This document shows positions 5,274 to 22,589 of a DNA stretch of 64,000 bases, in pieces. Made by a program: the position numbers and the translations under genes. The notes beneath the pieces were generated by a model. It searched no databases, was not told where the DNA came from, and saw only the letters and a program-made list of their open reading frames with translations. Source of the DNA: a virus; the IMG/VR virus record IMGVR_UViG_3300042434_002493, positions 16,436-80,435 of that record. One strand, given 5' to 3'. Every line of letters begins with the position of its first letter. Position 1 is the stretch's first letter.

Positions 5274-8200
5274 ACCCCGCCGCCCTGTTGCTCCAGCTCC
5301 AAGCCAACCGGGAAGCCGGCAAGGCCATCGACCGCAGCGACACCGCGACCGCATCCCTGCTTCCCGCGCTGGACGCCGCCGGTGACATCGACCACGGCGG
5401 GCGGCTCCACGCCGAGATGCGAACGGACAAGCGCGGGCGGACCCAGCATCGGCACGTCCGATGGGAGGAATTGAAGGGCGAAGACCTGGTTCACCAGGGC
5501 TACGTCAAGGCAGGCAGCCCCGCCGCGTTCGAGGCCCTGGGGGGGGACGAGTTCGCCGATCCGTCATGCGCGCGGTGCGGGGCACGGATCAAGCACGCCT
5601 ACCTGACCAACCACGGGCCCCTGGGGGGCGACTGCCTGGCGACGTTGACTGGCGACGACAGTTCGCGCGCCGCGGCGCGCCGGTTCGTGGAGAAGCTCGA
5701 CAAGGCGCAGGACAGCGCCCACCGGAGCAAGCGTACCCTGGCCGTTCTGACACTCAGCTTCGACCAGCACGCCGGCCAGATTCGTGCCGACTTCCAGCTC
5801 ACCAACGGCCGCCCGTGGTACGGCGCCGCTGGTGACGCTCGCCACGCGGTCATGTTCCACGCCGCCGCTTCCCAGTGGGCCGAGGCCCGAGGCTTGGAGG
5901 TGGACGAGCATCTCTCCGGGGACGAGAGCGCGCTCGCCGCCGCCAAGCGCATCGCCAGGGAGCGCCGGGCCGAGTTACAGGCCCGTGCCACCAGCAAGGC
6001 CGAGCAGGAAGTAGCCCGCATCCGCAGCGAGTCCCTCCGCCGCCTAGACGGCGTCCTGGCATTCCTGAAAGCGCCGCAGAACTACCGCCGGGCGCCCGTC
6101 GAAGCCGACTGGTTTTTCGGGCCCCTGAAAGCCCAGGCGGCAGACGCGATCCGAGAGCAGGTTGGCTTCCGCGTTCGCAGGTTCCGCAACAGTCGCGGCG
6201 ACGAACTGACGGAGGTGTCCGCGCGTCAACAGGGGCGCGGCCCCATCGTCGGCATGTTCCCGCCCGACGACTACGACGACCTCATCGACCGAATCCAGAG
6301 CGCAGGCTTTGAGGTGGAGAGCCAGGAAGCCGCCAAGGCCCTGCCGCTCGACCCCCCGCCGCAGGTCCGCCGGCCGCAGGAGCACCACCACCACGGCAGC
6401 GTGAAGGTGCCGGGTCTGCCGACGGTGGACGTCGAGACGCCCGAGGGCACCGTGCGCCGGGGAAAGGGCAAGGACGGGGAGCCGTGGGCCGTGCTCATGC
6501 CCGCGCACTACGGCGAGTTTCGCGGCACGCTGGGCGTGGACGGCGACGCCGTGGACGTGTTCGTGGGCCCCGAGCGCGACGCGCCGACCGCGTGGGTCAT
6601 CCGCGCGAAGGACCCGACGACAGGACGCTACGACGAGGACAAGGTCATGGTGGGGTTCGCCACCCGCACCGAGGCCATTCGCACCTTCCGCGCCTCGTAC
6701 AACGTGCGCGGCGTGCTGGGCGAGGTCACGGGCGTCCCGGTCGCCCGTCTTGGGGCGCTCCTCGCCGATGCGAGGCACCGCGGTCTCCCGCTCAACATGC
6801 ACAAGGCCGAGAGCCGCGAGCCGCCGCCGGCCGGGCCCGACTCTTCCCTGGACGACGCCTGGCGACGCCTGGAGCATGTCCGCCAGCAGATCGCCGAGCT
6901 GGCCGACACGCACGAGGGGGGGAAAGCCATCGACAAGAAGGACACCGCCACCACGAGCATGTTCGACCTCATGGGCGTGGGCGATCCGAGCCACGCCGGC
7001 CGACTTCACGAGGAGACCCGGACGGACGCGACCGGGCGCACCCAGAAGCGGTGGATCGCGTCGCAAGAGGCGGAGCCCGAAGGCACCATCCGGCATGGCG
7101 ACCTTGTTTCGCGCCCCGCCACGGTGCGAAGTGAGCACGGCGAAATGATGGGCGGTTCTGGCAACGCCTACACCCCAGACGGCGAGGCGTTGATCGCGCT
7201 CCCGCAACCGGGATTCGTGATCGGTGACGTGGAGATCGACGCAGCGCACCGTGGAAAGGGCCACGGACAGGCCCTCTATCTCCGGGCGATGGCCGAGCAC
7301 GGGAGGCTCTACTCCTCGTGGCCAGTGAGTAAGGATGCGTTTCGCGTTCACGACGCCCTCGTCCGCAAGGGTCTGGCCACGCGCCGCAACGTCGAGACCG
7401 ACGGCACCACGTTCACCGTTCTGGAGCCGACTGGGCAAGCCACGACGCCGCCCGAGGGTCTGGTGCAGATCGGCGAGCGAGCGCCCCGCGGGCGCGCGCC
7501 GACGCCCACGACCCCAGGCATGCGCGCCCAGGGCCGTCTCGACGGACTGGGCCACGAGCCGAGCCCGCCGCCGGCTCACCCCGAGCCGTCTCTGCGCGAC
7601 TACGACACGATCCTGGTGAACAGCTCCGCCGGCAAAGACAGCCAGGCGATGCTCGACTACGTCGTCGCGAAGGCGCGCGCCGAGGGTGTGCTCGACCGCG
7701 TCGTCGTCGTGCATGCCGATCTGGGCAGGGTCGAATGGGAAGGCACACGCGAGCTGGCCGAGGCGCAGGCCAAGCACTACGGACTGCGCTTCGAGGTGGT
7801 GACGAAGACCAAGGGCGACCTCATCGAGCAGATCGACCAGCGCGCCGTGGACCTTCAGCAGCGCAGTCACGACGCGGCCACCCTCGCCGCGGCCGGGTTT
7901 CGCACTTGGGGCGATCTGGCGGGGGCGAGCGCCGAGACACTGGCCGGGCTGATCGGCAAGGCCCAGGCGGACGCAGCGCAGCCGACCGAGGAGCGAGCTG
8001 CCAAGCTCAAGCAGGCCGCAGAGCGCAAGCTCAAGGGCGGCAAGGCCGCGACAGACCCGGTGGACTTCGGCAAGGAGATCGCGTGGCCGTCGAGCGCGTC
8101 GCGCTACTGCACCTCCGACCACAAGCGCGGTCCCATCCGCACGCTCATGACGCGCCTGACCAGCGAGTTCGACCGCAAGGGCGCGCCGGTGCGCATCCTG

Positions 8201-9799
8201 AACTGTATGGGCCTGCGGGGCGACGAGAGCAGCAACCGCGCCAAGATGCCGACGTTCGAGCACGACGACGCGGCGAGCAACGGCAAGCGTCATGTGGACG
8301 AGTGGTTGCCGATCCACCACTGGAATGAGGGCGACGTCTGGCGCCGCATCCGCGACGCCGGCACCCCCTACCACGGCGCCTACGACCTCGGGATGCGCCG
8401 GCTTTCGTGCGTGTTCTGCGTGTTTGCCACCCGCGACGACCTGAAGATCGCCGCCCACGCCAACCCGGCCCTGTTCCGCGAGTATGTCGCCCTGGAGCGC
8501 CGCGTGGGGCACAAGTTCCGGGCGGACCTCGCGCTGGCCGAACTGCACGACGCGATGGCCGCGGACGACGACCGCACCGAGGCATCGAAGGCCGCCGAGC
8601 AGATGCGCCTCTTCGGTGACCCGACCCACGGCGGCCACCTGCACGTCGAGGTCCGCACCGACAAGAGCGGCCGCACCGAGCGCCGCCACGTCCGCACCGG
8701 CTCGTTGCACACCGAGATGGGCCACGCGGGGGCGCCCGCGCCAGGCGAGCGCGGGCACATCACCCTCACGCCCGAGCGAGCCGAAGCCGAGCGCCGGGCC
8801 GGCAACATCATGGAGCACGTCGGGCGCATCTTCGACGGGGGCGAGGTACACCTCATCGAGGGCGCCATGCACGACGCCGGGCACACCCGAGAGTGGGCGC
8901 CGGACGAGAGCGGGGACGAAACTCCGTTGACCATTCGAGACGACGAGCTGCCCGGTCTGCTTGGGATGCCCGAGTGGAGCCCGGAGGACGCCGCCGACGC
9001 TGTTGCTCTGGTTGCCGATTCAACCGCGCACGGTGGGGTCATGCCCGGCGCCGTCGTGCGCGAGGTATTGGCGGACGCCATCGCGCCGGCCGGCAAGCTG
9101 CGACTCGTCAACGTGTCGCTCGACGAGGCCCGCGACTTTGTCGCCAAGCACCACAGCCAGATGCCCGAGATGAACCCCCGCGGGCTGATCTACGCCGTGG
9201 GGTGCATGAAGGGCGGGCGCCTGGTGGCCGTCGCGACCGCCGGCACGCCGACCGGGCGATGGGGCAACGGGCGGGTGGACCCGCGCAACATTCTGGAGCT
9301 GACCCGCATCGCGTCCGACGGCACCACGAAGGGGGCGTCGTCGAAGCTCGCCGCGCGCATGATTGACCTCCTCGACCGCTCCAAGCGGGGCGACGCCGAT
9401 GCCCCCGCGCTGTTCGTGACATACAGCCTGGGGACCGAGGACGGCACGACCTACCGCGCGCTGCGAGAGAAAGGTCTGCGACCCGTGGCGCTGGTCCACG
9501 GCAAGGCCGCCGGTGGGGGCGGGGCCCGGTCAGGCAACCGCCTGGGATACGCCGAGCCCGACAAGATCCGATGGGAGGCCGGCGCCGCGGCAGGCCCGGC
9601 CCGCTGGGATCTGCTCGAAGGCGCGAAGGCCGGACCCATCGCCAACGCCCCCGGCACTGATCCGCTACTTCCGCCCGACGAGGCTGCCAAGAGCTTCGGC
9701 GTCGTCGTCGCGTTCAAGGCCATCGACGAGGCAGATCGGGCAATGGCCCGAGGTACTGCTCCAGGTCGCCCTGCGGTTCAAGTAGCCGCGGGCGATTGA
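5270..9799 (+). CDS. Multidomain virion-cargo protein (1509 aa): Zn-finger, inorganic-pyrophosphatase-like, GNAT, PAPS-reductase-family and Mom/XF1762-like acetyltransferase domains
   Basis: CARC..H..GGDC (~5570-5640). HYGEFRGTLGVDGDAVDVFVGP..YDEDKVMVGF (~6390-6780). DVEIDAAHRGKGHGQALY (~7210-7400). NSSAGKDS, RYCTSDHK, GLRGDES, RLSCVFC (~7590-8560). SLDEARDFVAKHH, LELTRIASDG, VTYSLGTEDG (~9100-9610). Confidence 0.85.
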   Translation: MNPAALLLQLQANREAGKAIDRSDTATASLLPALDAAGDIDHGGRLHAEMRTDKRGRTQHRHVRWEELKGEDLVHQGYVKAGSPAAFEALGGDEFADPSCARCGARIKHAYLTNHGPLGGDCLATLTGDDSSRAAARRFVEKLDKAQDSAHRSKRTLAVLTLSFDQHAGQIRADFQLTNGRPWYGAAGDARHAVMFHAAASQWAEARGLEVDEHLSGDESALAAAKRIARERRAELQARATSKAEQEVARIRSESLRRLDGVLAFLKAPQNYRRAPVEADWFFGPLKAQAADAIREQVGFRVRRFRNSRGDELTEVSARQQGRGPIVGMFPPDDYDDLIDRIQSAGFEVESQEAAKALPLDPPPQVRRPQEHHHHGSVKVPGLPTVDVETPEGTVRRGKGKDGEPWAVLMPAHYGEFRGTLGVDGDAVDVFVGPERDAPTAWVIRAKDPTTGRYDEDKVMVGFATRTEAIRTFRASYNVRGVLGEVTGVPVARLGALLADARHRGLPLNMHKAESREPPPAGPDSSLDDAWRRLEHVRQQIAELADTHEGGKAIDKKDTATTSMFDLMGVGDPSHAGRLHEETRTDATGRTQKRWIASQEAEPEGTIRHGDLVSRPATVRSEHGEMMGGSGNAYTPDGEALIALPQPGFVIGDVEIDAAHRGKGHGQALYLRAMAEHGRLYSSWPVSKDAFRVHDALVRKGLATRRNVETDGTTFTVLEPTGQATTPPEGLVQIGERAPRGRAPTPTTPGMRAQGRLDGLGHEPSPPPAHPEPSLRDYDTILVNSSAGKDSQAMLDYVVAKARAEGVLDRVVVVHADLGRVEWEGTRELAEAQAKHYGLRFEVVTKTKGDLIEQIDQRAVDLQQRSHDAATLAAAGFRTWGDLAGASAETLAGLIGKAQADAAQPTEERAAKLKQAAERKLKGGKAATDPVDFGKEIAWPSSASRYCTSDHKRGPIRTLMTRLTSEFDRKGAPVRILNCMGLRGDESSNRAKMPTFEHDDAASNGKRHVDEWLPIHHWNEGDVWRRIRDAGTPYHGAYDLGMRRLSCVFCVFATRDDLKIAAHANPALFREYVALERRVGHKFRADLALAELHDAMAADDDRTEASKAAEQMRLFGDPTHGGHLHVEVRTDKSGRTERRHVRTGSLHTEMGHAGAPAPGERGHITLTPERAEAERRAGNIMEHVGRIFDGGEVHLIEGAMHDAGHTREWAPDESGDETPLTIRDDELPGLLGMPEWSPEDAADAVALVADSTAHGGVMPGAVVREVLADAIAPAGKLRLVNVSLDEARDFVAKHHSQMPEMNPRGLIYAVGCMKGGRLVAVATAGTPTGRWGNGRVDPRNILELTRIASDGTTKGASSKLAARMIDLLDRSKRGDADAPALFVTYSLGTEDGTTYRALREKGLRPVALVHGKAAGGGGARSGNRLGYAEPDKIRWEAGAAAGPARWDLLEGAKAGPIANAPGTDPLLPPDEAAKSFGVVVAFKAIDEADRAMARGTAPGRPAVQVAAGD

Positions 9800-9824: not shown

Positions 9825-9830
9825 GGCCGC

Positions 9831-12800
9831 ATGGCCCAGCCCGCGCAGCTCAACATTTTCGGCGGTCAAGATCCCATCCGCAACGGCGGCGATCCTTCGC
9901 ACGGCGGGGCCCTTCACCAGGAGCGGCGCACCGACAGCCGAGGAAGGACCGAGACGAAGTGGGTCCGTGACCCCAACGACCGACGCACCGTGGACTTGGA
10001 GAAGCTGATCGCACTCAAGGAAATGGGCCGCCGGGTGGACCGGCCGACCCTGTTCCGGTGGGCAGCCGGCCGGGTGAAGCACGACCCGGACACCTGGACG
10101 GCCTACCGCAAGTCCACAGCCGAGGAGACCCGCCAGGAAGGCGAGCAAGAACTGCGTCGCCGGTACGCCTGGCATCAGACGTTCGGCGAGCACACGCCGT
10201 TTCACCCCGCAGCGATGAGCGATCACATCACCGGCAGCTTCGAGGCGGAGGCCGCGAAGGCCGTCACGTTCTACCTCGCCGTGATCTTCGCCGAGGGTGG
10301 CAAGGCCGGCCCCATCGCCAACCGGCCGGGCCTGGTATTCGACTACATGAGCCGCCGTTGGAAGCGGGTCGAGCCCCACGAGGAGGGCGTTCACCTCGAC
10401 GAAGAGGCCGGGCAGGCTCACGTCGTCCCTTGGAAGCCGAAGCGCGACAAGAATGAGACGATGAGCCAGGAGGACTGGCAGGGCTTCATCGACGACGCGA
10501 ACGAGCCACTCCACGAGCGGGCCGCGAAAATGAACGCCACACTGGCGCACTACAAGGCGGGGCACCTGGAGTTCAAGAACCCCAGGGGCGACGGCCACGC
10601 GGTCATCATCCCGGATGCGAGCGAGCCGGGCCGCTGGCGTTACTCCGAGTACGACAAGAGTGGTTTCTCATCGCACACGACTCACGACACCCCAATGCAG
10701 GCCGCCGCCGCCGCCGGGGAGGCCGGTTTCACCGAGCCGGCGCCCGGCAGCCTGGATCGGCTTTCGCAGACCGAGGAGTGGGATCGCGGGACTCGCTCCG
10801 CCAAGATCAACCAGCTTGGCGGAGAACTGAACTGGAAGGGGCACCACGAGGCCGACCTGGCGGTGCGCAATCACTACGCCCGCCACGGCTGGAGCGCCGA
10901 AGCCTACCAGCGCATCATGCAGCCCGACGTCCTGGCCGCCGTCCGCGCCGGCCAGGTGCATCCCGAACTGCTCAAGGCCATCGCCGATCACCGCGAGGGT
11001 TTCAAGGCCGCGCCGAAGCTAGACTTCGGCGAGACGGCCCCGTCCGGCGAGCGGTGGATTACCGTCCGCCCCAACGGACCCGACGCCAAGGGTGTCCCGG
11101 TCCTGGTGCAGGTCCACCCCCACAACCCGCGCCAGGGCCACATCATCGGCGGCGCCGGGGGCAAGATGAACCTGCGCCGGCTCAACCTCAAGACCCCGGA
11201 GGAGTACCGGGCCGCCGCCGCCGCGCGACGCAAGAACCGACGCAAGAGCGAGAGCACGCAGGTTGACACAGGCCAGAGGGCCGCGCTCGAAGAGGTCAAG
11301 GGCGAGCACCAACAGCGCCGCAGGGCCGCCGCCGCCCAGGTACTCCGCCACGCCGGGCATCACGAGCTGGCCGACAAGATCGCCGCCGGCCCGCTGGCAG
11401 GCCAGGAGAGCGAGCACAAGGAGGCCGTCGCCGACGGCTACCGCAAGGTTCGCGTGCTCATGGCCAACGCCCGCCGAACGCTCGCCCAGGACACCGACGC
11501 CCGCGAGGCCGCAGGTCTGGGGGAGCTTCCGGCGACGAGCGGAGACGGGGGAATCGGGGCGAGCGACATCGCCGGCAGGCAGGTCATGCAGGGGGGCCTC
11601 GACTACAAGCGCGACCGGGCCGCCCTGAGCGACCAACAGGCCGATCTCGCCCGCGCCCAGGCCCTTCGCTCGCGCCTGGACGCCGATCTGCAACACGGCG
11701 AGCCCATCGACGCGCTCACCACAGCGCAGCGGTACGCCCGCGCCGCGAACCTTACCCACCGCGACATCGAGGCCGCGGGCCCCGTCGAGATCGCCGCGTT
11801 CGCCCGGCTGGCCAGCCGGCGCCTGAAAGCGTTCCGGCGGCTCCAGGAGGCCGTCACCGAGGCCGGCGGGGACAACACCGCGCCCACCATGCCCGACGAG
11901 GCTCGCGAGGCGATGGACGACATGGCCGCGGTCGTCAGCGGCAGCGGGCAGGATGCCATCGACGCCATGACCGATCCCGCGCGGAACGAAACCGCGCGCA
12001 AGGGACTACAGGCCGCCGTGGACCACGGCCTCATGGACCCGCAGCGCGAGCGGGACATGACGGCCCGTATCGAGCAGGCGCGCCGACAGTCCGCCGGGGC
12101 TCCCGAGCTTTCGCAGCTCAACCAGGAGCACGTCGAGTCTCTCCCGGCCCGCGCCATCGCCATCGTGGCCAACGACGCCGCGCACGCGATCCGCCGCATG
12201 CGCACCGCGGCCCCCGAGGATCTGCGCAAGCTCGCCGAGCAGGTGGGCGAGGAGGTGCCGACCATCAAGGGCGCCGCCGATGCGCTCGGCGAAGAGGCCC
12301 TGATCTCCGGCGAAGCCACCGACGCACAGCGCCGCTCGTTCTTGCGCCAGGCGCTCGCGTCCGGCGTGCTCACCGGCGACGCCACACCGCCGAAGGCTGC
12401 CGCCGATCCGTCCCTCGAAGTGAACGACGGGGCAAAGGCCCGCGCGATCTTCGAGGCCGGGTTGAAGGTCAAGGGTCTCGACAAGGAGGCCCGGCGCCGC
12501 CGCAACGCCATCATGGCCGGAGACCTGGCGGGCGCCGCCTCGCAACAGTGGGAGGCCCCCCGCGGCGGAGCCAACGACCCGACGCAGCAGCTCGCCGACC
12601 ACCCTTCGACCGAGATGGTCGCCGCGGTGCAAGGCGAGGTCCGCACCCAGCGCGCCCGCGCGTTTCTGGGGCAGGTCAATCAGACCTACCAGGACATCGG
12701 CCAGATGCTCGACGAGGACCAGGACGCGGCGCACGCCGATCTGGGCCGCCACATGAGCCGGGGCAGCTTCGACGCGGTCAACCACCACGCTCAAGAGATC

Positions 12801-15800
12801 CTGCGCAGCGCGACCATCGACCGCAACGTCGTAGACCTCCTCGGTTCGGAGGGGGCCGCACAACTCCTCGCTTGGCAGATCCGTCAGACGCACCCGGAGC
12901 AGGCCGAGGCATTGACGCAGGCGGTCGGCGACTATCACCTGCGCCTCCAGGACACCCACATCCCCGAGGCGATGGACACCTCGCGCGACGCCTACGAGGC
13001 CGCCCACGAGGTTCACCAGGGCATGCAGGAGCAGGGCGACCTGCGCGAGTGGCAGGCGCTCAACCGCCAGCGCATCGAGCACCTCGACCAGTCGCGGCAA
13101 ACGCTGGGCCGGACCTTGGGTTACCTGGAAACGTCCGCGGCTTTGCACGCCGCGATGCTTTCGCCGGCAGCGCACCCGATCCGCGTCTCCGCCGGGCCGG
13201 TCGATGCGACGCAGCTCGCAGCCCACGCGCGCGCCGCCGGACTCGGAGACGACGACTTCCACATCGAGCACGACGGCAAGAACGGGTGGTTGACGGTGCA
13301 GCCGGCAGCGTTCGGCAAACTTGTCCGCCCGGTCGATGCCGAAGAGGTCCGCCTCGACCGTGACATGGAGGCCATCCGCACGGGCCAGCAGGACGACCCG
13401 ACGTGGCGCCCGGCCGGGTTTATGCAGCGCACCGACGTCCGCCCCGAGCAGCGTTTCAAGGGTGAGGTCCCGCAGAACGCGCAGCCCTTCGACTACGGAC
13501 TCGCCGAGCACGCGAACATGCACGAGGCGATGGGCACCTACATCGCCCAGCGCGTCCACGACGGGTGGCGGCCCGTGGACATCATGCGCGATCTCCAGAA
13601 CACCGGCGAGCACATGGGCGGCATCGCCGCGGGGGTCGGCGAGGCCGACCTCCAGAGCCCGCAGGTGCAGGCGTGGCAGGAGTTGCACCCCGAGCCGCCG
13701 AAGACCGTGGCAGCCCAGGACGACGGGCAGGCGCGAATGCCCTGGGACCCCGAGCCCGAGCCCGGACCCAACCCCGCCCACGCCAGTTGGGAGCAGGACC
13801 GGCGCGAGATCGCGGCCAAGGGCAAGCTTGCCGCGTTCCACGAGGCTTTGGCCGCCCACATGCCATCGAGAGCGCAGGACAAGAATCAGAGCCTCCAGCA
13901 GGCCGAGGAGCACGCCCCGCACTTCATGGAGCTGGCCAGGCAGCACGCCGAGCGGGTGGGCACAGCGGGGACGTTGCACCACCAGCAACTCGACCCGACG
14001 TTGGCGAATGACCTCGCCTTTCGGGTGCTGGGCCGGCACCCGGCCGCGGTGGGCGCGTGGAAGCCCGTCGAACAGTTGGGCCACCACGAGCGCGCCGCTT
14101 TGCGCGAGTCGTTCTACCGCTACTTCCACAGCCGACAGGGGGAGATGCCGCAGGAGCTTCACCCCGAGGCCGTCATGGCAAAGTGGGCGAGCAAGAACCC
14201 GGAGCCGGCCCGCGACAACACCGCGCAGGGCGATCTCCTCGGTTTCGGCAGTCTCCCCGGCATGGGGGGATTCGGCGCGCCGTCGCCGGAGGACATCGAA
14301 GCCGCCGAGGCCGAAGCTGGCCACGCGCACGAGCGATGGGAACAAGCCCTCGTTGAGCACGAGCGCGCCCAGGCGGGCATCGCCGATCCCAAGGCCGCGT
14401 TTCTCTCCCAGGCGAAAGAGCACGTCGAAAGCGTCGCCCGCCACCTGGCCAAGACGACGAAGACGCACAACGACGACGCCCACCCCGAGGTCGCCGCGGC
14501 CCGGGAACGACACAGGCACGCGCAGGACGTGGCCGCGTTGCGCGCCGAGCCCGACGCGGCCACGCCCGACGCGCTCCGCGCAGCGCACGGAGCCTACCGA
14601 TCCGCCACAGGTGCGGCTCAGAGCGCCGTCGTGCAGTTGGCGCGAGCCGAAGACGCGCGGAGCCGCTCCGCCGCGCAGGCGTTCGATGCCCGTCACCACG
14701 ACGCGAGCCCGGAGTGGAAGGCGTGGCGCAAGGAGCGCGACGAAGCCGAGCGCGCCGCACACCGGGCAGCCTCGCGCTACGACGCCCCCGACTGGAACAC
14801 CTACGTCGCCAGCCACGGCGGCGCGCCGCAGGCGTACCAGGCGCTTCAGGATTTCGTGCGCTCCCGGTTCGTGCAGGAGTTCCGCACGCTCTACCAGGAC
14901 CACGCCCAGAGCCCGCTCCAGATCGGCGTGCAGGCGGTGGCCGGCGCCGCAGGCCACCGCCTCGCCTTCGACCCAGACTGGCGCGACCGTGTGCGCCGCA
15001 CCGCCAACGCAGCCGGCGCGACCGCGCGCACACGCGCAGCCGGCGGGCGGTTCAGTTCGGACCCGTACAAGGAGGCGCGCGAGCGGTTCCAGGCCCAGGC
15101 CCGCGAGATGGCCAATCGACAGACCAGCAACGTGGGCGAGGTCAATCCCGATCCGCGGCGAGCGCCCGACCTGGACGAGCGATACACCCTCGGGCAGGCC
15201 GCCGAGGGCCAGCTCGCCAACATCGTCGGGCAGCACGCGAGCATCATCGACCCGAGGCAGACGTTCGAGGCTCGCTCCGCTGACTTTTCGGGGCCGGGCG
15301 CCAAGCGGCAGCGCGCGATCAAGGCGTGGAAGCGCAGCCGCAAGATCGGGATGTTCCTCGGGACGGGCCAGGGCAAGACGACCGTCGCGTTCGGCACCTT
15401 CGCCGACCTCAAAGGCGAGGGCCGGGTCCAGCGGGGCGTGTTCGCCGTGCCCAGCATCGTGCAGGGCCAGTTCGGAGGCGAGGCGTTGTCCTTTGTGGAC
15501 CCCGCCCACATGCGCTGGCACGCGAAGCCCGGCGAGGGCAAGGCCGAGCGCATGGCCGCCTACGCCGACCCGGAGAAGCACGTTGTCGTCGTGACGCACC
15601 AGGCGCTTCGCGACGACGTCACCGAGATGGTCGCGAAGCACCTCGGGATGAGCCGCGAGCAGGTCGCCGCACACATGACGGACGGCGAGGTGCAAGCCCA
15701 GGCGCCGGAGGTCCCCCACCTCGACAAGATGCGCGACCTGGCGAGGATCACGCCCGAGCAGATGCTCCGAGACAGCGACTACGACAAGGCGATGCGCAAC

Positions 15801-18326
15801 GCCTACGTCGGCGGCGCGAGCAGCCGCACTACGCCCGCCCAGGTGCCGAGCTACCCGGTGGGCACCTGGAAGGTGGACGACACCTTCCGCGGCTTGTACG
15901 GGTCCGACGTCGAGCACCTCCAGGAGTTCGACCCCGACGATCTTGTCGCGACGGAGAACAACGTCGCCACGAACGCAGAGGGCCGCGGCACCGACGCCGA
16001 CCGCTATGCCGAGTGGGCCCGCAGCGGAGAGCACGGGGAGCCGCCCCCGATCCGCGTCGTCCAGGCCGAGGACGGCAGCATGCGCATCACCGACGGACAC
16101 CGTCGCCACGCCGCGGCGAAGAAGAACGGCCAGAAGATCAAGGCGTGGGTCAGCTATGCAGCGCACACCGGGCGCCTCGACAGCAACGGCAAACCCATCG
16201 TGACCGGACTGACGCACGAGATGGCAATCCACCGAGCCCGAGAAGCCGGCGACCCCGCCGAGGCGTGGCATGCCCAGACGTTCCCGGACCTCGCGGAGAA
16301 GATGCAGACGGCCGACGTGCAGCCGGTCAAGGGGGCCGCCGCGCGCACCGTCCAGCCGTGGACAGAGGACGAGACCGACCAGCACGTCAGGGCAGCCCTC
16401 ACGGCCCACGAGGCCCACGGACTCCTCGACTACATGGCCGTGGACGAGGGGCACGTCGCCTTGAACCGAAAGGGCAAGCAGGACAGCCACCTCGCCCGCG
16501 TCATCGACAGCCTGGGCCGCTTGGCGAAGTACGCCGGCTACATGACCGGGACGCCCGTCAAGAACGACACCAGCGAGCTGTACGACCAGCTCCGCAAGGT
16601 CGCGCCCCACAAGTACGGCGACGGGGAGGGTAAGACCAGCCTCCAGGAGTTCACCCGGCGCTACGGGACCGATCCGACGACCGCCGGGCCCGCCCTGCGC
16701 ACAGAGATGCGGCGTCACGCCTTCATGGCCGAGGCGCCCATGCCCTTCGAGCCGAACTACCACACCGACAAGCTCGACCCCACCCCCGAGCAGTCGCGAG
16801 ACCTCGACGACGTGCATCGGTCATACGAGCGGGTGGCAGCCGCCCGCCGGGCCGGTACGCTCAACATCGAGGCCGCCCGCGCGCTCGCCCCGAGCGCCTT
16901 CGCCAGCGTCGCGCCGGGGGACGAAGAGGCCGCCCGCGCCGTGGCCGAGAAGGTCCACCGCAGCCCGGTGACGTTCCGCGAGGCCGCGCTCAACCGCCAC
17001 ATCAACATGCACGCCCAGGGCGCCAAGCTCGCCCACCTCGACCAGTTGATCGGAGGCTACCGCTCGCAGCCGCTCCCCAGGGGCGCCCGCGAGAGCGAGG
17101 CCGCCTACCAGGCACGCACCGCCGCGGGCGACACGCACCGCCGCGCCGGAGTCATCTTCGCCCACAACCACGAGGCCGTGGCCCAGATCGCCGAGCACCT
17201 CAAAGCCAAGGGGCACCGCGTCGAGACCATCACCGGCAAGGACACCGGGCAGCTCAAGACCAGGAAGCGCGAGGCGTTCGACAGGGGCGAGCACGACATC
17301 CTCATCCTCAGCGACGCCGGAGCCACCGGCGCGAACCTTCAGTCGCGGGCGAGTTGGATCATCAACCACGACACCCCGGCGACCTACCACACCTGGAAGC
17401 AACGCAACGCGCGCATCCTCCGCGTGGGGCAGCGCATGGACCGCCCCGACGTCCACACGCTCCAGGTAGACCACCCCTGGGAGCACGACGCCGCCGCGCG
17501 CATGGAGCGCAAGCGCAGCCTGCACGACCCCCTGTACGCCGAGGACGACGAGAGCCAGGACGAGGGCGGACTCGCCCACATCATCCGCCAACACCTGCAC
17601 GAGGCCGCTTCGCCGCTCACGCCGCAGTCCTACGGGCCGCCGGCCCGCGAGACGCCCACGTCGGCGCCCGCGCGTGCCGAGCCTCACACGTTCCACGGCA
17701 GCAAAGAACAGTGGGATGCGTTGCCCGTCGCCTACCACACGACCGTGGACGAGGCCGGCGTGCGCGCTCACGGGTTCAAGCCAGACGCCTTCGCCGAGCA
17801 AGGGTACGGCGGGGGGCGCCAGCCTGGCGCGGTGTGGGCACACCACGGGCCGGGAGCCGCAGAGAGAGCGCAGGCGATGGCCGACTACATGAACGACGTG
17901 CAGGACATCGCCAGGCACCCCGAGCCGATGAAGCACGCACGCGAGAAGTTGCAACAGCTCGCCGCGAGAACACCCGGCGCAACCCCGCGAGACATGGACA
18001 ACGCCACCTCGACGGGCGATTTTTTGATGAAGTACGGCGACAGCCACGCGTCCGAGTTCCCGCACCTGCAACCAAAGACAGACGCCCAACGCGCGGCCAT
18101 GTGGTACGGCCACGCGCGCGGCTCTGCAAACGGTGGGCGACTGGGGGGGCAGAATGCGCCCGTGACACCCGAGGCCGTGGATCGTGCAGCCGCGCGCACG
18201 TCGCGCGCGTCCGTCGTACAGATCCGCCACACCCCCATTGGAAGCCAGAAGGGCGTCGGGATCGAGCACAACAGCGACCGCGCTATCGAGCCCAATCACA
18301 TATTCCTGCGGCACGGGGGCGGGTAG
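9831..18326 (+). CDS. Giant multidomain virion-cargo protein (2831 aa): SNF2-like ATPase with an inserted ParB-like domain and a possible C-terminal ADP-ribosyltransferase-like domain
   Basis: Walker A FLGTGQGKT (~15355-15381), Walker B VDEGH (16440-16454), MTGTPVKN, SDAGATGANLQ, QRNARILRVGQ. ParB-like PPIRV..ITDGHRR (16041-16106). ERWITVRPNG..IIGGAGGK segment. C-terminal AYHTT. Confidence 0.85.
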   Translation: MAQPAQLNIFGGQDPIRNGGDPSHGGALHQERRTDSRGRTETKWVRDPNDRRTVDLEKLIALKEMGRRVDRPTLFRWAAGRVKHDPDTWTAYRKSTAEETRQEGEQELRRRYAWHQTFGEHTPFHPAAMSDHITGSFEAEAAKAVTFYLAVIFAEGGKAGPIANRPGLVFDYMSRRWKRVEPHEEGVHLDEEAGQAHVVPWKPKRDKNETMSQEDWQGFIDDANEPLHERAAKMNATLAHYKAGHLEFKNPRGDGHAVIIPDASEPGRWRYSEYDKSGFSSHTTHDTPMQAAAAAGEAGFTEPAPGSLDRLSQTEEWDRGTRSAKINQLGGELNWKGHHEADLAVRNHYARHGWSAEAYQRIMQPDVLAAVRAGQVHPELLKAIADHREGFKAAPKLDFGETAPSGERWITVRPNGPDAKGVPVLVQVHPHNPRQGHIIGGAGGKMNLRRLNLKTPEEYRAAAAARRKNRRKSESTQVDTGQRAALEEVKGEHQQRRRAAAAQVLRHAGHHELADKIAAGPLAGQESEHKEAVADGYRKVRVLMANARRTLAQDTDAREAAGLGELPATSGDGGIGASDIAGRQVMQGGLDYKRDRAALSDQQADLARAQALRSRLDADLQHGEPIDALTTAQRYARAANLTHRDIEAAGPVEIAAFARLASRRLKAFRRLQEAVTEAGGDNTAPTMPDEAREAMDDMAAVVSGSGQDAIDAMTDPARNETARKGLQAAVDHGLMDPQRERDMTARIEQARRQSAGAPELSQLNQEHVESLPARAIAIVANDAAHAIRRMRTAAPEDLRKLAEQVGEEVPTIKGAADALGEEALISGEATDAQRRSFLRQALASGVLTGDATPPKAAADPSLEVNDGAKARAIFEAGLKVKGLDKEARRRRNAIMAGDLAGAASQQWEAPRGGANDPTQQLADHPSTEMVAAVQGEVRTQRARAFLGQVNQTYQDIGQMLDEDQDAAHADLGRHMSRGSFDAVNHHAQEILRSATIDRNVVDLLGSEGAAQLLAWQIRQTHPEQAEALTQAVGDYHLRLQDTHIPEAMDTSRDAYEAAHEVHQGMQEQGDLREWQALNRQRIEHLDQSRQTLGRTLGYLETSAALHAAMLSPAAHPIRVSAGPVDATQLAAHARAAGLGDDDFHIEHDGKNGWLTVQPAAFGKLVRPVDAEEVRLDRDMEAIRTGQQDDPTWRPAGFMQRTDVRPEQRFKGEVPQNAQPFDYGLAEHANMHEAMGTYIAQRVHDGWRPVDIMRDLQNTGEHMGGIAAGVGEADLQSPQVQAWQELHPEPPKTVAAQDDGQARMPWDPEPEPGPNPAHASWEQDRREIAAKGKLAAFHEALAAHMPSRAQDKNQSLQQAEEHAPHFMELARQHAERVGTAGTLHHQQLDPTLANDLAFRVLGRHPAAVGAWKPVEQLGHHERAALRESFYRYFHSRQGEMPQELHPEAVMAKWASKNPEPARDNTAQGDLLGFGSLPGMGGFGAPSPEDIEAAEAEAGHAHERWEQALVEHERAQAGIADPKAAFLSQAKEHVESVARHLAKTTKTHNDDAHPEVAAARERHRHAQDVAALRAEPDAATPDALRAAHGAYRSATGAAQSAVVQLARAEDARSRSAAQAFDARHHDASPEWKAWRKERDEAERAAHRAASRYDAPDWNTYVASHGGAPQAYQALQDFVRSRFVQEFRTLYQDHAQSPLQIGVQAVAGAAGHRLAFDPDWRDRVRRTANAAGATARTRAAGGRFSSDPYKEARERFQAQAREMANRQTSNVGEVNPDPRRAPDLDERYTLGQAAEGQLANIVGQHASIIDPRQTFEARSADFSGPGAKRQRAIKAWKRSRKIGMFLGTGQGKTTVAFGTFADLKGEGRVQRGVFAVPSIVQGQFGGEALSFVDPAHMRWHAKPGEGKAERMAAYADPEKHVVVVTHQALRDDVTEMVAKHLGMSREQVAAHMTDGEVQAQAPEVPHLDKMRDLARITPEQMLRDSDYDKAMRNAYVGGASSRTTPAQVPSYPVGTWKVDDTFRGLYGSDVEHLQEFDPDDLVATENNVATNAEGRGTDADRYAEWARSGEHGEPPPIRVVQAEDGSMRITDGHRRHAAAKKNGQKIKAWVSYAAHTGRLDSNGKPIVTGLTHEMAIHRAREAGDPAEAWHAQTFPDLAEKMQTADVQPVKGAAARTVQPWTEDETDQHVRAALTAHEAHGLLDYMAVDEGHVALNRKGKQDSHLARVIDSLGRLAKYAGYMTGTPVKNDTSELYDQLRKVAPHKYGDGEGKTSLQEFTRRYGTDPTTAGPALRTEMRRHAFMAEAPMPFEPNYHTDKLDPTPEQSRDLDDVHRSYERVAAARRAGTLNIEAARALAPSAFASVAPGDEEAARAVAEKVHRSPVTFREAALNRHINMHAQGAKLAHLDQLIGGYRSQPLPRGARESEAAYQARTAAGDTHRRAGVIFAHNHEAVAQIAEHLKAKGHRVETITGKDTGQLKTRKREAFDRGEHDILILSDAGATGANLQSRASWIINHDTPATYHTWKQRNARILRVGQRMDRPDVHTLQVDHPWEHDAAARMERKRSLHDPLYAEDDESQDEGGLAHIIRQHLHEAASPLTPQSYGPPARETPTSAPARAEPHTFHGSKEQWDALPVAYHTTVDEAGVRAHGFKPDAFAEQGYGGGRQPGAVWAHHGPGAAERAQAMADYMNDVQDIARHPEPMKHAREKLQQLAARTPGATPRDMDNATSTGDFLMKYGDSHASEFPHLQPKTDAQRAAMWYGHARGSANGGRLGGQNAPVTPEAVDRAAARTSRASVVQIRHTPIGSQKGVGIEHNSDRAIEPNHIFLRHGGG

Positions 18327-18327
18327 G

Positions 18328-18621: not shown

Positions 18622-18623
18622 GG

Positions 18624-18905: not shown

Positions 18906-19123
18906 TGGACTTGACCTGCGGCGGATGCGGGTGGCGCTTGGGGGCCGTGGAGGCCGCCAAGGGCGACGAGCCCGCCGAGGGCTACAGCGTGGCCCGCACC
19001 CTGCACTTCCGGGCCGGCCAAGTGGTCGCCCGGTGCGGCAAGTGCAAGGCAGATACGCCCTTGCCGCTCCAGGTCCGCGTCATGTTCGGTCGCGGCGCGG
19101 CCGACGAGCCGCCCGCAGCCTGA
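18905..19123 (+). CDS. Small CxxC-CxxC zinc-finger protein
   Basis: TGATG coupling to the previous gene; CGGC..RCGKC. Confidence 0.65.
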   Translation: MDLTCGGCGWRLGAVEAAKGDEPAEGYSVARTLHFRAGQVVARCGKCKADTPLPLQVRVMFGRGAADEPPAA

Positions 19124-19207
19124 TCAGACCGCTTGCGCGCGGCCGAATGGCGCCGTTAGAGTCGCACGCAAGCCCAATGGCGGATCGCCGGGCATCGAGG
19201 AGATTCG

Positions 19208-20239
19208 ATGCGCGCGACCCCACACCAGAGCCACGTTGAATACAGCCATGCCCACGCCGACGTGGACATCGAGCTGCTCACGCGCCGCGTGGCCGTGTTC
19301 GACGGGTTCGAGGCGTTCAAGGCCGCGACCGGCGAGTTGCCGATGCACCGGCCGGACCTGAAGCGGGAGCGCCGCGATGGCGCCGACGTCTGGACGCGCA
19401 ACGGCATCATCGTGCCGCACCCGGACAAGGTCCGCTGGTTGTGGGCGCGTTTCAGCGACCCGTCGCCGGACCTCGAAGGCGAGAGTGTGTCCGCCGCGCC
19501 GTTCCGCCAGTTCGCCGACGACAGCGTCCGCAAGTGGGGCGGGTGGATCGACATGAACCACTGGTCTCGCCCTCAGCGGTTCCCCGAGCAGATGGCCAAG
19601 GCCGGCCGGTCCCCCGAAGAGTACGTCATCGGCAAGCTCACGGAGATCCGTGTGAGCGGCGACGACACAAGCTACGCCGAGGGCTACCTCTGGCCCGAGG
19701 GCGTCAACGAGCACGCCGACACCGCCGCCGGTTGGCTCCGGTACGCCCCCGACATGGTCCACTGTTCCGCCGGTGGGCCCATCGTGAAGGGGCACCCGCA
19801 GATCGTCGGTGGCCGCAAGGTCGTGCCCGTTCAGATTTTCCTGAACCACCTGGCCATCGCGCTCCAGGGTGTTCACAACGAGACCGCCGTCAAGACCACG
19901 CCCTTCGGGGAGTTCTACAAGGCACTGGCCGATGGGATCTCCGAGACCGAATGCGCGGGTGACAGCAGTTTCGCCAAGCACGTCCGCGGCATGCCCGAGG
20001 GCACCAAGGCCATGACGGCCGCCGCCGTGGCGCCCGCCGTGCCCGAGGATCTGGAGGGCGCCAAGACCACGAAGCCGGCAGGCCCGCGAGACGTGACCGA
20101 CGTGACCGACTGCGACCACTGGATCGCCGGCACCCGGAAGTTCCATTCCACCGCCGCCGCGCACGAACACCTGACGCGATGTTGCGGCTGGCCAGCGACG
20201 CGCGCGCGCGATTACCTCGCCGCCGCCACCCGATCCTGA
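19208..20239 (+). CDS. Prohead (capsid maturation) protease, HK97/Herelleviridae-like fold
   Basis: DLEGESV, WIDMNH (putative catalytic His), YVIG, YAEGYLW, CSAGG (putative catalytic Ser). Located two genes upstream of the capsid gene. Confidence 0.75.
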   Translation: MRATPHQSHVEYSHAHADVDIELLTRRVAVFDGFEAFKAATGELPMHRPDLKRERRDGADVWTRNGIIVPHPDKVRWLWARFSDPSPDLEGESVSAAPFRQFADDSVRKWGGWIDMNHWSRPQRFPEQMAKAGRSPEEYVIGKLTEIRVSGDDTSYAEGYLWPEGVNEHADTAAGWLRYAPDMVHCSAGGPIVKGHPQIVGGRKVVPVQIFLNHLAIALQGVHNETAVKTTPFGEFYKALADGISETECAGDSSFAKHVRGMPEGTKAMTAAAVAPAVPEDLEGAKTTKPAGPRDVTDVTDCDHWIAGTRKFHSTAAAHEHLTRCCGWPATRARDYLAAATRS

Positions 20240-20253
20240 AGGAGACGACCCCT

Positions 20254-21063
20254 ATGTCCAACACCGTCGAGTCCATCCAGCGCAACCTCGCCGTACTGCG
20301 TGACGCGCTGCCCGAGGGGGCCAAGGCGATGCCGCCTGGCATGCCTCCGATGGGCGCCCCCCCCGGCGGCGCCCCGCCTGGCGGCGCTCCCGGGCCGAGC
20401 CCCATGCCCGCGCTCCCCGGCTCCCCCCCGCCCGGCATGGGGATCTCGCCCCCGCCCCCCACCCCCGAAGGGGACGAGGAGGAGAATCCCGAAGGGGACG
20501 AGGAAGAGAATCCCGAGGACGAGGAGGGCACCAAGGCTTTCTACGAGGGGTGCAAGAGCGCCGAGTGCGGTCGATGCTTGCCGTGCATCAACGCCGAGGC
20601 CGAGAACGAGGGCGCCAAGTCCTACCAGGACGGCCAGGCCGCCGCCCAGGTCGGCAGCACCGTGCTCGCGCGCCTCATCGAGGGCGCCGTTCACGCGGCC
20701 GTGGGGTCGCGCCTGCGTCGCATCGAGCGGCAGCTCGAAGCCGTCGCGCAGGGCGTGGACGGCAACCTGACGCTGGGGCTCAAGAGCGCCGAGAGCCTGG
20801 GCGCTCTGCGCCGGGCCCCCGGCGTGCTCCCCCGCGGCCCCGGCGTCGCGGTCGCCAACGCCCGTGGCGGGAATCCCGCGCCGGGCGTTCACCTGCCGCC
20901 TCCGGTCGAGGAGGGTGGTAAGTGCCCCTACAACGAGCAGCAGCTTCTCATCGCCGTGCAGAAGGGCGTCCTGACGGGCGCCGAGGCGCAGCTCTGGATG
21001 AACCGTGACCAGCCCCCTGCCCGTCTGCGCAACCCCGTCGAAGCCGTGAAGTCCGTCCTCTGA
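20254..21063 (+). CDS. Putative capsid scaffolding protein (269 aa)
   Basis: AAGGAG RBS. Lies between protease and capsid genes. Has Pro-rich and acidic tracts, a coiled coil and several E-[GA]-x-K-[AS] sites. Confidence 0.65.
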   Translation: MSNTVESIQRNLAVLRDALPEGAKAMPPGMPPMGAPPGGAPPGGAPGPSPMPALPGSPPPGMGISPPPPTPEGDEEENPEGDEEENPEDEEGTKAFYEGCKSAECGRCLPCINAEAENEGAKSYQDGQAAAQVGSTVLARLIEGAVHAAVGSRLRRIERQLEAVAQGVDGNLTLGLKSAESLGALRRAPGVLPRGPGVAVANARGGNPAPGVHLPPPVEEGGKCPYNEQQLLIAVQKGVLTGAEAQLWMNRDQPPARLRNPVEAVKSVL

Positions 21064-21101
21064 GGCCACAGGCCCAATTTCAGAAAGAAGGAGAGAACAG
21101 C

Positions 21102-22589
21102 ATGAACACCCCCGCTGGCCTGTACCTGCCGCTCACCCCCGACCTCATGCACCTGGTCGGAGGCGAGCAGGGCCTCAAGGCGATGACCGCCGAAGTCGGC
21201 AGCCGCGCCATCAACGTCATGGGCGCCGTCCCCGAGAACCTGGAGATGCAGGCGCACGTCGCCCTCTGGGATCGCGACGACCTCCGCCTCCTCCGCGAAC
21301 TGCCGAGCGTGGACGCCGAGAGCATCTCGCACGAGTTCGGCGTCGTGGACTCCTACGGCAACGTGCAGGGCACCTCCCTGTTCGCGCCCGAGGGCGGTCT
21401 CGGCATGCAGACCGGCTACAGCCTGGCCAAGCTCATGACGCGGATCGTCACGCTCCAGCTCGTGAACAAGGTGACGGGCACCGCCCGCGCGCAGAAGACC
21501 ATGTCGGTCCTGGGGAGCACGGATGCGCTCGTGAGCAACCGCGAGGCGATCATGAGGAACTTCCTCATGGTCAAGTCCATCGCGACGATCCACGCGCGAG
21601 CCGGCGCCTCGACCTCGACCCTGCGATTCTCCGGTCTCCTGGAGCAGTTCCAGGTGCGCAACCAGTCCGCGGACTTCGCGCACCGGCTCTACTCCTGCGA
21701 CCCGACCCTCGTCATCGACAAGCGCGGCACCTGGATGAACCGATCCGACGTCAAGAGCGCCGGCACCCAGATGTACAAGAACGGGTGGGGCAAGCTGAAC
21801 CGGATCTTCATGACGCCGGAGACGAGCGAGAACTTCCAGGGCGAGGTGGAGACGAACTTCCCCATCGAGCGCGCGGACATCAAGGACATCGGCGACAACG
21901 GTCTCATCATCGGTGCGACCATCGCCGGCATCCGTCACCAGGGCGGCGTCGCCCTGTTCATGACGGACAACAGCTTGGACCCGGGCCTCACCCACGGCGA
22001 GTTCAAGGGCGATCCCCCGCCCAACAGCCCGGTGCGCCCCGACGCCCCCACCATCGTGACCGCGAACAACGTCGCCAACTCGAAGTGGGAAGCCATCGAC
22101 GTCCCCGCTGACGCGGGCGTGATCAAGTACAAGGTGTGCTTCGAGAACGACTTCGGGCCCAGCCAGCCCAGCGTCGCGTCGGCCGGGACCAACCCGGTCG
22201 CCGGGTGCCGCCAGCGCCTCACGATCAACACCCGCGCCGACGCCAAGAGCGTGAAGATCCTGCGCAACAGCGCGCAGCGTCCGACCGAGTTCTACGTCAT
22301 CGGCGAGATCCCCAACAGCGGCGCCGTGCTCACGTTCGACGACCTGAACTGGAAGATCCCCGGTTCCGCCGTGGCCATCGGCCTGGAGATGATGTACGGC
22401 AAGAGCCAGACGAACCGGCTCAACGCCCGCGCCCGGGACAACGCGGTGCGCTTCGCGCAGCTCGAAGAGATGCACAGCGTCCCCCTCGCCAAGATCGGCG
22501 ACTTCGACTGGGAGATGATCATCGAGCGCACCGCGCCCGAGCTGGTCCAGAAGCTCCGCATGGTGGTCTGGGAGAACATCGGCCGCTAG
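21102..22589 (+). CDS. Major capsid protein, Twort/K/SPO1-like
   Basis: Strong RBS. N-terminal LK-A site followed by ENLE..LW..DL; LRFSGL; VIDKRG; GWG..FM; internal YKVCFEN insertion domain; VPLAKI; C-terminal WENIG. These match my recall of Herelleviridae capsid proteins. Confidence 0.85.
   Translation: MNTPAGLYLPLTPDLMHLVGGEQGLKAMTAEVGSRAINVMGAVPENLEMQAHVALWDRDDLRLLRELPSVDAESISHEFGVVDSYGNVQGTSLFAPEGGLGMQTGYSLAKLMTRIVTLQLVNKVTGTARAQKTMSVLGSTDALVSNREAIMRNFLMVKSIATIHARAGASTSTLRFSGLLEQFQVRNQSADFAHRLYSCDPTLVIDKRGTWMNRSDVKSAGTQMYKNGWGKLNRIFMTPETSENFQGEVETNFPIERADIKDIGDNGLIIGATIAGIRHQGGVALFMTDNSLDPGLTHGEFKGDPPPNSPVRPDAPTIVTANNVANSKWEAIDVPADAGVIKYKVCFENDFGPSQPSVASAGTNPVAGCRQRLTINTRADAKSVKILRNSAQRPTEFYVIGEIPNSGAVLTFDDLNWKIPGSAVAIGLEMMYGKSQTNRLNARARDNAVRFAQLEEMHSVPLAKIGDFDWEMIIERTAPELVQKLRMVVWENIGR

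Follow-up and report, generated by a model that had tools for sequence, protein, structure and literature searches.

An E-[GA]-x-K-[AS] motif recurs in the head and giant cargo proteins of an uncultured myophage and is a predicted recognition site of its divergent prohead protease

The stretch of DNA considered here (the window: 64,000 nucleotides, bases 16436-80435 of the 80,435-bp virus record IMGVR_UViG_3300042434_002493 of IMG/VR, 70% GC) carries part of the late region of a myophage, and our subject is a short motif, E-[GA]-x-K-[AS], that recurs in its head proteins and in its giant putative cargo proteins. Genes were predicted by a call based on the GC content of third codon positions (GC3) and annotated by Pfam and PHROG searches. 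From these annotations, it is evident that the window and the upstream part of the record follow the gene order of a myophage late region, with the portal gene, a series of putative cargo genes totalling about 8,700 residues, a prohead protease gene, a scaffold gene and the capsid gene standing in that order (Table 1; coordinates prefixed L001 refer to the whole record, all others to the window). Three small genes separate the gene of the 2831-aa cargo protein from that of the protease.

All 16 strict matches to the motif listed by the initial annotation have been recovered at the coordinates given there, in the 1509-aa, 2831-aa, protease and scaffold proteins. Its remark that the tail genes lack strict matches also holds, and strict matches are equally missing from the remaining called proteins of the window. 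Measured against shuffled controls, the four head proteins of the window have 16 sites where 0.58 are expected, and the highest count reached in 2000 per-protein shuffles is 4; the remaining proteins (15,542 residues) have none against 0.90 expected. Because the initial annotation was drawn from the window alone, the upstream 16 kb of the record served as held-out data. Six further strict sites are found there, against 0.65 expected (Poisson P ~6e-5), in the portal, 419-aa, 1093-aa, zeta-toxin-domain and DarB-like proteins. Over the whole genome, 22 strict sites fall in 10 portal-to-scaffold proteins (10,813 aa; 1.44 expected), and the other 15,007 aa have none (0.81 expected). Many sites lie near an N terminus: in four cargo proteins at K18, K20, K25 and K47, in the scaffold at K24 and, in a variant form, in the capsid protein at K26. 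At the DNA level, the pattern encoding the motif occurs 20 times in frame in the head genes and three times in the other frames or strand, and its codons differ synonymously among the sites; it is this in-frame enrichment combined with synonymous variation that indicates selection at the protein level. The initial caveat about looser matches was well placed: EHLKA indeed falls within the helicase domain.

The motif is also enriched in two relatives. In the single relative found in IMG/VR (capsid 90% identical), there are 18 strict sites in the head module against 1.49 expected, and two elsewhere against 0.71. In a more distant phage from a Myxococcota metagenome-assembled genome (MAG; capsid 47% identical), there are seven strict sites against 0.92 expected, and the looser form E-x-x-K-[AS] is present in 25 copies among 6660 head residues and in a single copy among 9077 others. 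The MAG phage keeps the C-terminal site of the portal and the N-terminal site of the scaffold, both reading EPGKA, and the Glu and Lys residues are kept at matching sites in relatives of 30-50% identity. Judged from these alignments, the conserved core is Glu at P4, Lys at P1 and a small residue at P1′, Gly or Ala at P3 being a local preference; P4 may also be Asp or Gln, as in DGFKA and QPAKA of the relative's DarB-like protein and in QGLKA of the window capsid. We have also checked whether the motif could be intrinsic to polyvalent proteins with InPase or PAPS domains. Nine distant polyvalent proteins that share only these domains (31-52% identity) show no enrichment, so that this explanation was rejected and the motif belongs to the phage lineage, not to the domains.

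Table 1. Genes, motif sites, predicted products and leader copies of the late region
Feature	Coordinates	Remarks
Terminase	L001:3910-5805	
Portal, 616 aa	L001:6365-8215	one motif site, K592
419-aa putative cargo protein		between portal and 1093-aa protein; site K47
1093-aa putative cargo protein		before zeta-toxin-domain protein; site K25
Zeta-toxin-domain protein (UDP-GlcNAc kinase family), 391 aa	L001:12796-13971	site K376, 15 residues before the C terminus
DarB-like protein, 2385 aa	ends at 4956 (+)	C-terminal 1651 aa at 1..4956
DarB-like motif sites	K20 L001:14282-14296; K83 L001:14471-14485	upstream of the window
Ulx-like protein, 106 aa	4953..5273 (+)	phrog_1629, E 4e-11; no motif site
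1509-aa protein	5270..9799 (+)	InPase, PAPS-reductase-like and Mom-like domains
EAGKA	5312..5326 (+)	1509-aa protein, predicted cut K18/A19, N-terminal propeptide; type I leader next
EAAKA	6326..6340 (+)	1509-aa protein, predicted cut K356/A357, just N-terminal of InPase module
EGGKA	6914..6928 (+)	1509-aa protein, predicted cut K552/A553; helix before, type I leader after
EASKA	8579..8593 (+)	1509-aa protein, predicted cut K1107/A1108, immediately C-terminal of PAPS-reductase-like module
EGAKA	9617..9631 (+)	1509-aa protein, predicted cut K1453/A1454; type II leader (AGPIAN...) next
EAAKS	9680..9694 (+)	1509-aa protein, predicted cut K1474/S1475
Predicted products of 1509-aa protein	residues 1-18; 19-356; 357-552; 553-1107; 1108-1453; 1454-1474 and 1475-1509	propeptide; unknown; InPase; PAPS-reductase-like; Mom-like; short tails
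2831-aa protein	9831..18326 (+)	helicase near C terminus; Pfam Helicase_C, phrog_62
EAAKA	10248..10262 (+)	2831-aa protein, predicted cut K143/A144; kept in IMG/VR relative
EGGKA	10293..10307 (+)	2831-aa protein, predicted cut K158/A159; type II leader next
EGFKA	10995..11009 (+)	2831-aa protein, predicted cut K392/A393
Putative prohead protease gene, 343 aa	19208..20239 (+)	
EAFKA	19310..19324 (+)	protease, predicted cut K38/A39; E-x-x-K before catalytic domain in 11/14 family members
EFYKA	19910..19924 (+)	protease, loose match, absent from the initial list; predicted cut K238/A239, end of catalytic domain
EGTKA	19997..20011 (+)	protease, predicted cut K267/A268; disordered linker; E264 and K267 nearly invariant in family
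EGAKT	20054..20068 (+)	protease, possible site, T at P1′; within conserved VPEDLEGAK; EGAKA in closest relative
Scaffolding protein, 269 aa	20254..21063 (+)	five motif sites
EGAKA	20314..20328 (+)	scaffold K24; orthologous site EPGKA in MAG phage
EGTKA	20524..20538 (+)	scaffold
EGCKS	20545..20559 (+)	scaffold
EGAKS	20608..20622 (+)	scaffold
EAVKS	21040..21054 (+)	scaffold, three residues before C terminus
Major capsid protein, 495 aa	21102..22589 (+)	phrog_752; Twort/K/SPO1-type relative
QGLKA	21168..21182 (+)	capsid, predicted maturation cut K26/A27; Q at P4
Tail genes	3′ of capsid	sheath at 31435-33249
Type I leader copies	5324-5460, 6926-7060, 8591-8700; L001:9548-9690, 14294-14485	

The candidate enzyme for these sites is the 343-aa protein encoded just before the scaffold. 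Built with 11 homologues, its AlphaFold2 model is confident over a core of residues 50-220 (predicted local distance difference test score, pLDDT, >80) and disordered over residues 221-291, beyond which the C terminus forms a small helical domain. The best structural match is T4 gp21 (5jbl; Foldseek E 1.3e-3; VIA Z 9.9 over 140 aa with a root-mean-square deviation of 3.2), followed by about 20 entries of herpesvirus assemblins at VIA Z 5-7. All 14 family members, with identities as low as 30%, keep His118, Ser187 and His214, of which His118 and Ser187 are probably catalytic residues. When the family profile was compared by hhalign with the head-maturation protease of phage A511, which itself passes the Pfam Peptidase_S78 model, 136 columns were aligned (E 0.0026, probability 11.5%), pairing PDLEGE with LDLQGE, NHWS with FEHR and CSAGG with FSIEG, the His and Ser motifs included. 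The protein has no PHROG match, and the PDB sequence-profile search with the protease family gave none either; among the distant family matches, three of nine show sub-threshold S78 or S78_2 hits. The family is rare, with 60 representatives at E ≤0.001 among 1.84 billion proteins. We therefore file the protein as an assemblin-fold prohead protease that is related to the S78 clan and is not a Pfam S78 member.

The protease itself carries sites around its catalytic domain. The one at the end of this domain, K238, reads E-x-x-K-[AS] in 13 of the 14 family members (KLSKA in the member P0039) and aligns, as GEFYK followed by Ala, with ESFMK followed by Ser just past the catalytic domain of the Herelleviridae proteases. 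Cuts at K238, K267 and K286 are predicted to free the C-terminal domain (residues ~295-343; window 20090-20239), in which C302, H304, H321 and C325 are conserved and which may bind zinc. In a related phage, the protease forms the C-terminal domain of a 1116-aa protein (P0037). Over its N-terminal 800 residues, P0037 is similar to residues 1-390 of the 2831-aa protein and contains leader sequences of both types described below, with their sites.

The capsid protein is the putative substrate for which a known counterpart exists. It has no Pfam match, yet a profile of eight capsids matches in the PDB the major capsid protein (MCP) of phi812 (5lii, 463 aa; 9row, 439 aa; E 2.7e-10) and Gp6.1 of SPO1 (9vel, E 2.1e-9). 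Lys26 and Ala27 are invariant in the eight capsids, and the N terminus in this capsid family reads GGE-E-G-L-K-A; relatives at 46-53% identity have E-x-L-K-A in four of five cases and EDAVKA in the fifth. The premise of the initial annotation, that capsids of this kind mature by cleavage at an N-terminal K-S site, is borne out by the A511 record, where an annotated mat_peptide starts at Ser24, after ...QEDALK. In the K-like phage A5W, the corresponding sequence is ...QEDVVK followed by SFQTG, and 463 minus 24 residues gives the 439-residue deposited chain of 9row. When aligned on the PENLE block, K26 of the window capsid comes to lie about three residues or less from the position at which Herelleviridae capsids are cut. 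On these capsid and protease homologies, the reading with the best support is a cut after Lys.

The scaffold has been identified by its place between protease and capsid and by its Pro- and acid-rich composition, with no Pfam or PHROG match; its start is most likely the ATG at 20254, with AAGGAG 9 nt upstream, in an open reading frame (ORF) open from 20179. A Cys-rich stretch, C-K-S-A-E-C-G-R-C-L-P-C (window 20539-20607), has three of the motif sites around it. In the Herelleviridae, scaffolds also repeat an acidic-x-x-K-S sequence, for example EETSK/S twice in A511 gp85 (A511 record, region 7443-9123), and the proteases repeat the mature N-terminal sequence of the capsid after a K-S; from these repeats, the acidic-x-x-Lys code may be general in that family.

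The 1509-aa cargo protein shows how the sites are placed relative to folded domains. Its Pfam InPase domain (residues 372-494), its PAPS-reductase-like domain (Pfam PAPS_reduct; PHROG 424, 777-1103) and its Mom-like domain (1275-1397) all have their envelopes between the sites at 356, 552, 1107 and 1453, and the predicted enzyme-sized pieces have 338, 196, 555 and 346 residues. In an AlphaFold2 model of residues 330-620, the InPase domain is confident (372-514), whereas the sites on both sides of it lie in stretches with pLDDT <50, the second directly after a predicted helix. The same boundaries reappear in relatives, and the three mosaic versions of the protein have shared modules of 87-92% identity. 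K356 corresponds to the N-terminal site K18 of a 1831-aa protein of the IMG/VR relative, whose residues 1-18 align with 342-356, and also to K16 of a stand-alone 222-aa InPase protein of the MAG phage, so that the InPase module is met in three states: internal in the window, first in the 1831-aa protein and as a gene of its own. An extra 419-aa module of the relative, inserted after the PAPS-reductase-like module, sits exactly between the equivalents of two sites, and in a third mosaic version, P0022, a different module follows the PAPS unit, swapped after a site. The statement that the motif marks domain boundaries is thus supported, both by its place in linkers beside folded domains and by the module boundaries of mosaic relatives. 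A separate indel in this protein affects residues ~600-726 (window 7070-7450), of which about 100-125 are missing or replaced in both mosaic relatives; its breakpoint is the end of the PAPS-module leader and not a site.

The other giant proteins have their sites mainly near the N terminus. In the MAG phage, a 1902-aa orthologue of the 2831-aa protein has its N-terminal site, K20, at the equivalent of K392. The predicted products of the 2831-aa protein are 1-143, 144-158, 159-392 and a 2439-aa body, with a loss of 392 N-terminal residues. The start of this body (window 11007-11180) reads E-R-W-I-T-V-x-P-x-G ... P-V-L ... N-P-R-x-G-x-I-I-G-G-A-G-G-K, and the same E-R-W-I-T-V start opens the 1902-aa orthologue. 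The DarB-like protein (Pfam N6_Mtase, SNF2-rel_dom and Helicase_C; PHROG DarB-like antirestriction, phrog_10089, E 4e-92) is predicted to lose 83 residues, a 20-residue propeptide plus the 63-residue leader between its two sites. On these predicted cuts, the 1509-aa gene alone would encode a true polyprotein and the others would mainly be trimmed at the N terminus. The earlier term 'polyproteins' therefore describes the 1509-aa protein well, but the other giant proteins only in part.

After a site, a leader of roughly 35-45 residues often follows. The type I leader, present after many sites, starts A-I-D-K-K-D-T-x-T-x-S-M-F-D or A-E-Q-x-x-L-F-G and continues D-P-x-H-G-G-R-L-H-x-E-T-R-T-D-x-x-G-R-T-x-x-R-W-V, with a predicted beta-hairpin; in the DarB-like protein, the leader is bracketed by two motif sites. 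The type II leader, A-G-P-I-A-N-x-P-G-L-x-x-D-x-x-S-H-R-W-K-R, lies at window 9629-9690 and 10305-10370, in the 1509- and 2831-aa proteins, and is also found in the 1225-, 1831- and 2593-aa proteins of the relative and twice in P0037.

The cargo proteins have the features of polyvalent proteins, as both the 1509-aa protein (InPase, PAPS_reduct and Mom-like) and the DarB-like protein (N6_Mtase, SNF2 and Helicase_C) join unrelated domains, and their genes show mosaic domain shuffling in a late-gene context between portal and protease. They are presumably cargo of the polyvalent or P1 Dar-like kind, which would be ejected into the host with the DNA; they match DarB-like and 'minor head protein' PHROGs, and it is from such homology only that delivery is proposed. 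With Pfam and PHROG, no MPTase or other peptidase domain was found in them.

As to the surroundings of these genes, a 67-aa ORF lies directly after the gene of the zeta-toxin-domain protein, and an 851-aa protein of the tail region (window 34564-37119), which has no motif site, ends in a metallo-endopeptidase (tape-measure/endolysin-like) domain. Few relatives of the phage were found. Searches against 50,697 phage records, by tblastn with the capsid and protease and by blastn with the region, gave no match, and its TerL is at most ~28% identical to those of 90-kb enterobacterial, Bordetella and Pseudomonas myophages and of Thermus phages. A metagenome scan gave a single related contig of 4.6 kb, 59% GC.

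Taken together, the direct evidence consists of the statistics of the motif, its conservation, the fold of the protease, the location of sites in linkers and the mosaic module boundaries, and the sites are distributed over capsid, scaffold, protease, portal and cargo, which is the classic pattern of prohead-protease substrates. We consider it probable, at roughly 0.8, that the prohead serine protease encoded at 19208-20239 recognises E-[GA]-x-K where the next residue is Ala or Ser. We infer cleavage, the position of the scissile bond, packaging and injection as follows. Head and cargo proteins would assemble into a procapsid, in which the protease would then cut after Lys, with Glu at P4, Gly or Ala at P3, Lys at P1 and Ala or Ser at P1′. 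The capsid protein would lose a 26-residue propeptide, the cargo proteins would lose short N-terminal propeptides of 18-47 residues, and the portal and the zeta-toxin-domain protein their C-terminal tails. The protease would separate its own C-terminal domain, the scaffold would be chopped into pieces, and the 1509-aa protein would be cut into four modules: one of unknown type, InPase, PAPS-reductase-like and Mom-like. The in-silico predictions of the initial annotation have held, with refinements, and its interpretation is supported, the cleavage itself being a prediction.

Several points weigh against this reading. The phage is uncultured, and the predicted cuts come from sequences and models. 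Up to seven of the 22 sites are not independent, being copies within two repeated leader modules, and 17 independent sites are left after collapsing them. Upstream of P4, where an amphipathic helix was sought, no strong additional determinant was found, hydrophobic residues being weakly raised at P8-P9 and P12-P13. Some sites vary in the IMG/VR relative, where the equivalent of K392 reads EGFKE and the DarB-like protein has DGFKA and QPAKA in place of the strict motif; some mosaic breakpoints lie at the end of a leader or about 24 residues before a site. As for the enzyme, it has no Pfam S78, S78_2 or S77 match even at E 10, the hhalign link to A511 is weak, and T4 gp21, its best structural match, cuts after Glu and not after Lys.

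The last point leads to the alternative that survives best, although we regard it as improbable: the prohead protease could cut the same motif after Glu (E/[GA]-x-K-[AS]), as do T4 gp21, phiKZ gp175 and SPN3US gp245. Glu and Lys are the best conserved positions of the motif, T4 gp21 is the nearest solved fold (Z 9.9), and in phage P1, the Dar cargo system of which is related, the capsid is cut at E120/S121 (PMC9024508). However, the PDB matches include no proteases of this fold other than gp21 and the herpesvirus assemblins, and the similarity to gp21 is therefore uninformative on Glu versus Lys. Glu-specific phage proteases require Leu/Ile or Ser/Ala/Gly at P3 (PMC10052503), yet nothing is conserved at P2-P4 relative to Glu in the present sites: the two or three residues before it vary, and the Glu-specific motif [L/I]-x-E is absent. 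Moreover, the homologous capsid site of A511 and K-like phages is cut after Lys, and the conserved leaders start right after Lys.

It is less probable still that the motif serves in binding or targeting (to scaffold, capsid interior or chaperone) or in lysine modification, in proteins that stay uncut. Such a role could be imagined from the conserved leaders next to the motif, which resemble loading tags, and from P1 DarB, which is packaged through an N-terminal 30-residue signal with no documented cleavage there (PMC9024508). The motif is present without a leader, however, in capsid, portal, scaffold and protease, its capsid copy is homologous to a proven cleavage site, and the presence of five sites in the scaffold, and of others on both sides of the protease domain, is a typical sign of degradation and self-processing.

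If the sites are cut, a different protease might in principle be responsible: one from the host, or one that is part of the cargo, in the way that embedded zincin-like MPTase domains have been proposed to process polyvalent proteins (Iyer et al. 2017, PMC5512222). We find this very unlikely, as Pfam and PHROG detect no MPTase or peptidase domain in the cargo, the motif is common to the capsid, scaffold, portal and protease itself, and in P0037 cargo-type modules bearing these sites are joined directly to the protease. Finally, chance, a composition effect (high-GC proteins rich in Ala, Gly and Glu) and a repeat or recombination signal in the DNA were rejected as having almost no probability: although the motif was defined after the data had been seen, in a genome of 70% GC with Ala- and Gly-rich proteins, no composition-preserving shuffle attained the observed count, the held-out sequence and two relatives replicate it, and the pattern is in frame with varied codons.

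Among the closest known systems are those of the Herelleviridae (A511 Cps K23/S24; K/phi812-type Mcp K24/S25; S78-type protease), whose capsids belong to a homologous fold family. They share the short N-terminal propeptide cut after Lys with an acidic P4/P5 and a small P1′ (EDAVK/A of a relative of the window capsid is almost identical to EDALK/S of A511) and a K/S or K/A site just past the catalytic domain of the protease. The window motif is sharper, with Glu at P4 and Gly/Ala at P3, and extends into ~8,700 residues of giant cargo, which Herelleviridae are not known to carry; its protease has diverged beyond the reach of the Pfam S78 model, and the phage differs in having 70% GC, an 80-kb record and a Myxococcota MAG relative.

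A second comparison is with T4, phiKZ and SPN3US, in which one assemblin-fold prohead protease (gp21, gp175 and gp245, respectively) cuts capsid, scaffold, portal, itself and packaged or ejected proteins, guided by a motif and after Glu (PMC10052503). In these systems, with the capsid targeting sequences of IPI-III and Alt in T4 and the ejection proteins of phiKZ and SPN3US, short N-terminal propeptides of ~10-25 residues end in the protease motif (PMC10052503), much like the sites described here. Those enzymes cut after Glu ([L/I]-x-E or [S/A/G]-x-E), whereas cutting after Lys is predicted here, and their substrates are mostly single proteins with propeptides, in contrast to the predicted cutting of a multi-enzyme chain between its modules.

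Likewise, the cargo resembles the polyvalent proteins of Iyer et al. 2017 (PMC5512222), the study in which the InPase family was defined, in being giant late-gene proteins with unrelated conflict domains, predicted packaging and delivery, extensive mosaicism and an expected need for processing. Embedded MPTases were considered the main processing agents there, assemblin-like peptidases being only rare C-terminal fusions (PMC5512222), an arrangement seen here in P0037. In the present phage, no embedded peptidase was found, and processing is likely the task of a separate prohead protease with a defined site code. The P1 Dar system is similar in its adjacent DarB-like and Ulx-like genes in the head module and in the N-terminal signal region of its methylase-helicase. 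It differs in that the P1 capsid is cut E/S with no K-type motif reported, and DarB is not known to lose its signal; homologues of P1-type DarA, Hdf and DdrB were not detected in this phage. In the literature, with incomplete coverage, we have found no described E-x-x-K code of phage proteases. What appears new, then, is a Lys-type, Herelleviridae-like specificity that is also placed between modules of polyvalent cargo, with a separate protease as the likely agent.

A wider and more tentative idea is that site and leader together form a portable cassette to load, cut and deliver: any payload placed after an amphipathic propeptide, E-G-x-K/A and a leader would be packed into the procapsid, freed by the prohead protease and injected, and recombination between copies of the leader would shuffle payloads among genes and among phages. 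As part of the same idea, a QLxLF-like sequence of the exposed leader might bind the enzyme to a target in the host, for instance the sliding clamp, and the cassette might be a Lys-specific, S78-like counterpart of the T4 capsid targeting sequence that handles multi-enzyme chains.

The proposal puts forward a concrete, testable code of cut sites for a prohead protease that is both rare and divergent, and it joins two ideas that have been treated separately, namely capsid maturation by head proteases and the processing of giant polyvalent anti-defence proteins. If true, the code would predict the mature injected enzymes (InPase, PAPS-reductase-like, Mom-like, zeta-toxin kinase and methylase-helicase), explain why module and recombination boundaries coincide and provide a short tag with its site by which foreign proteins could be loaded into capsids. 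It also suggests that the K/S cut of the Herelleviridae capsid may belong to a wider acidic-x-x-Lys specificity.

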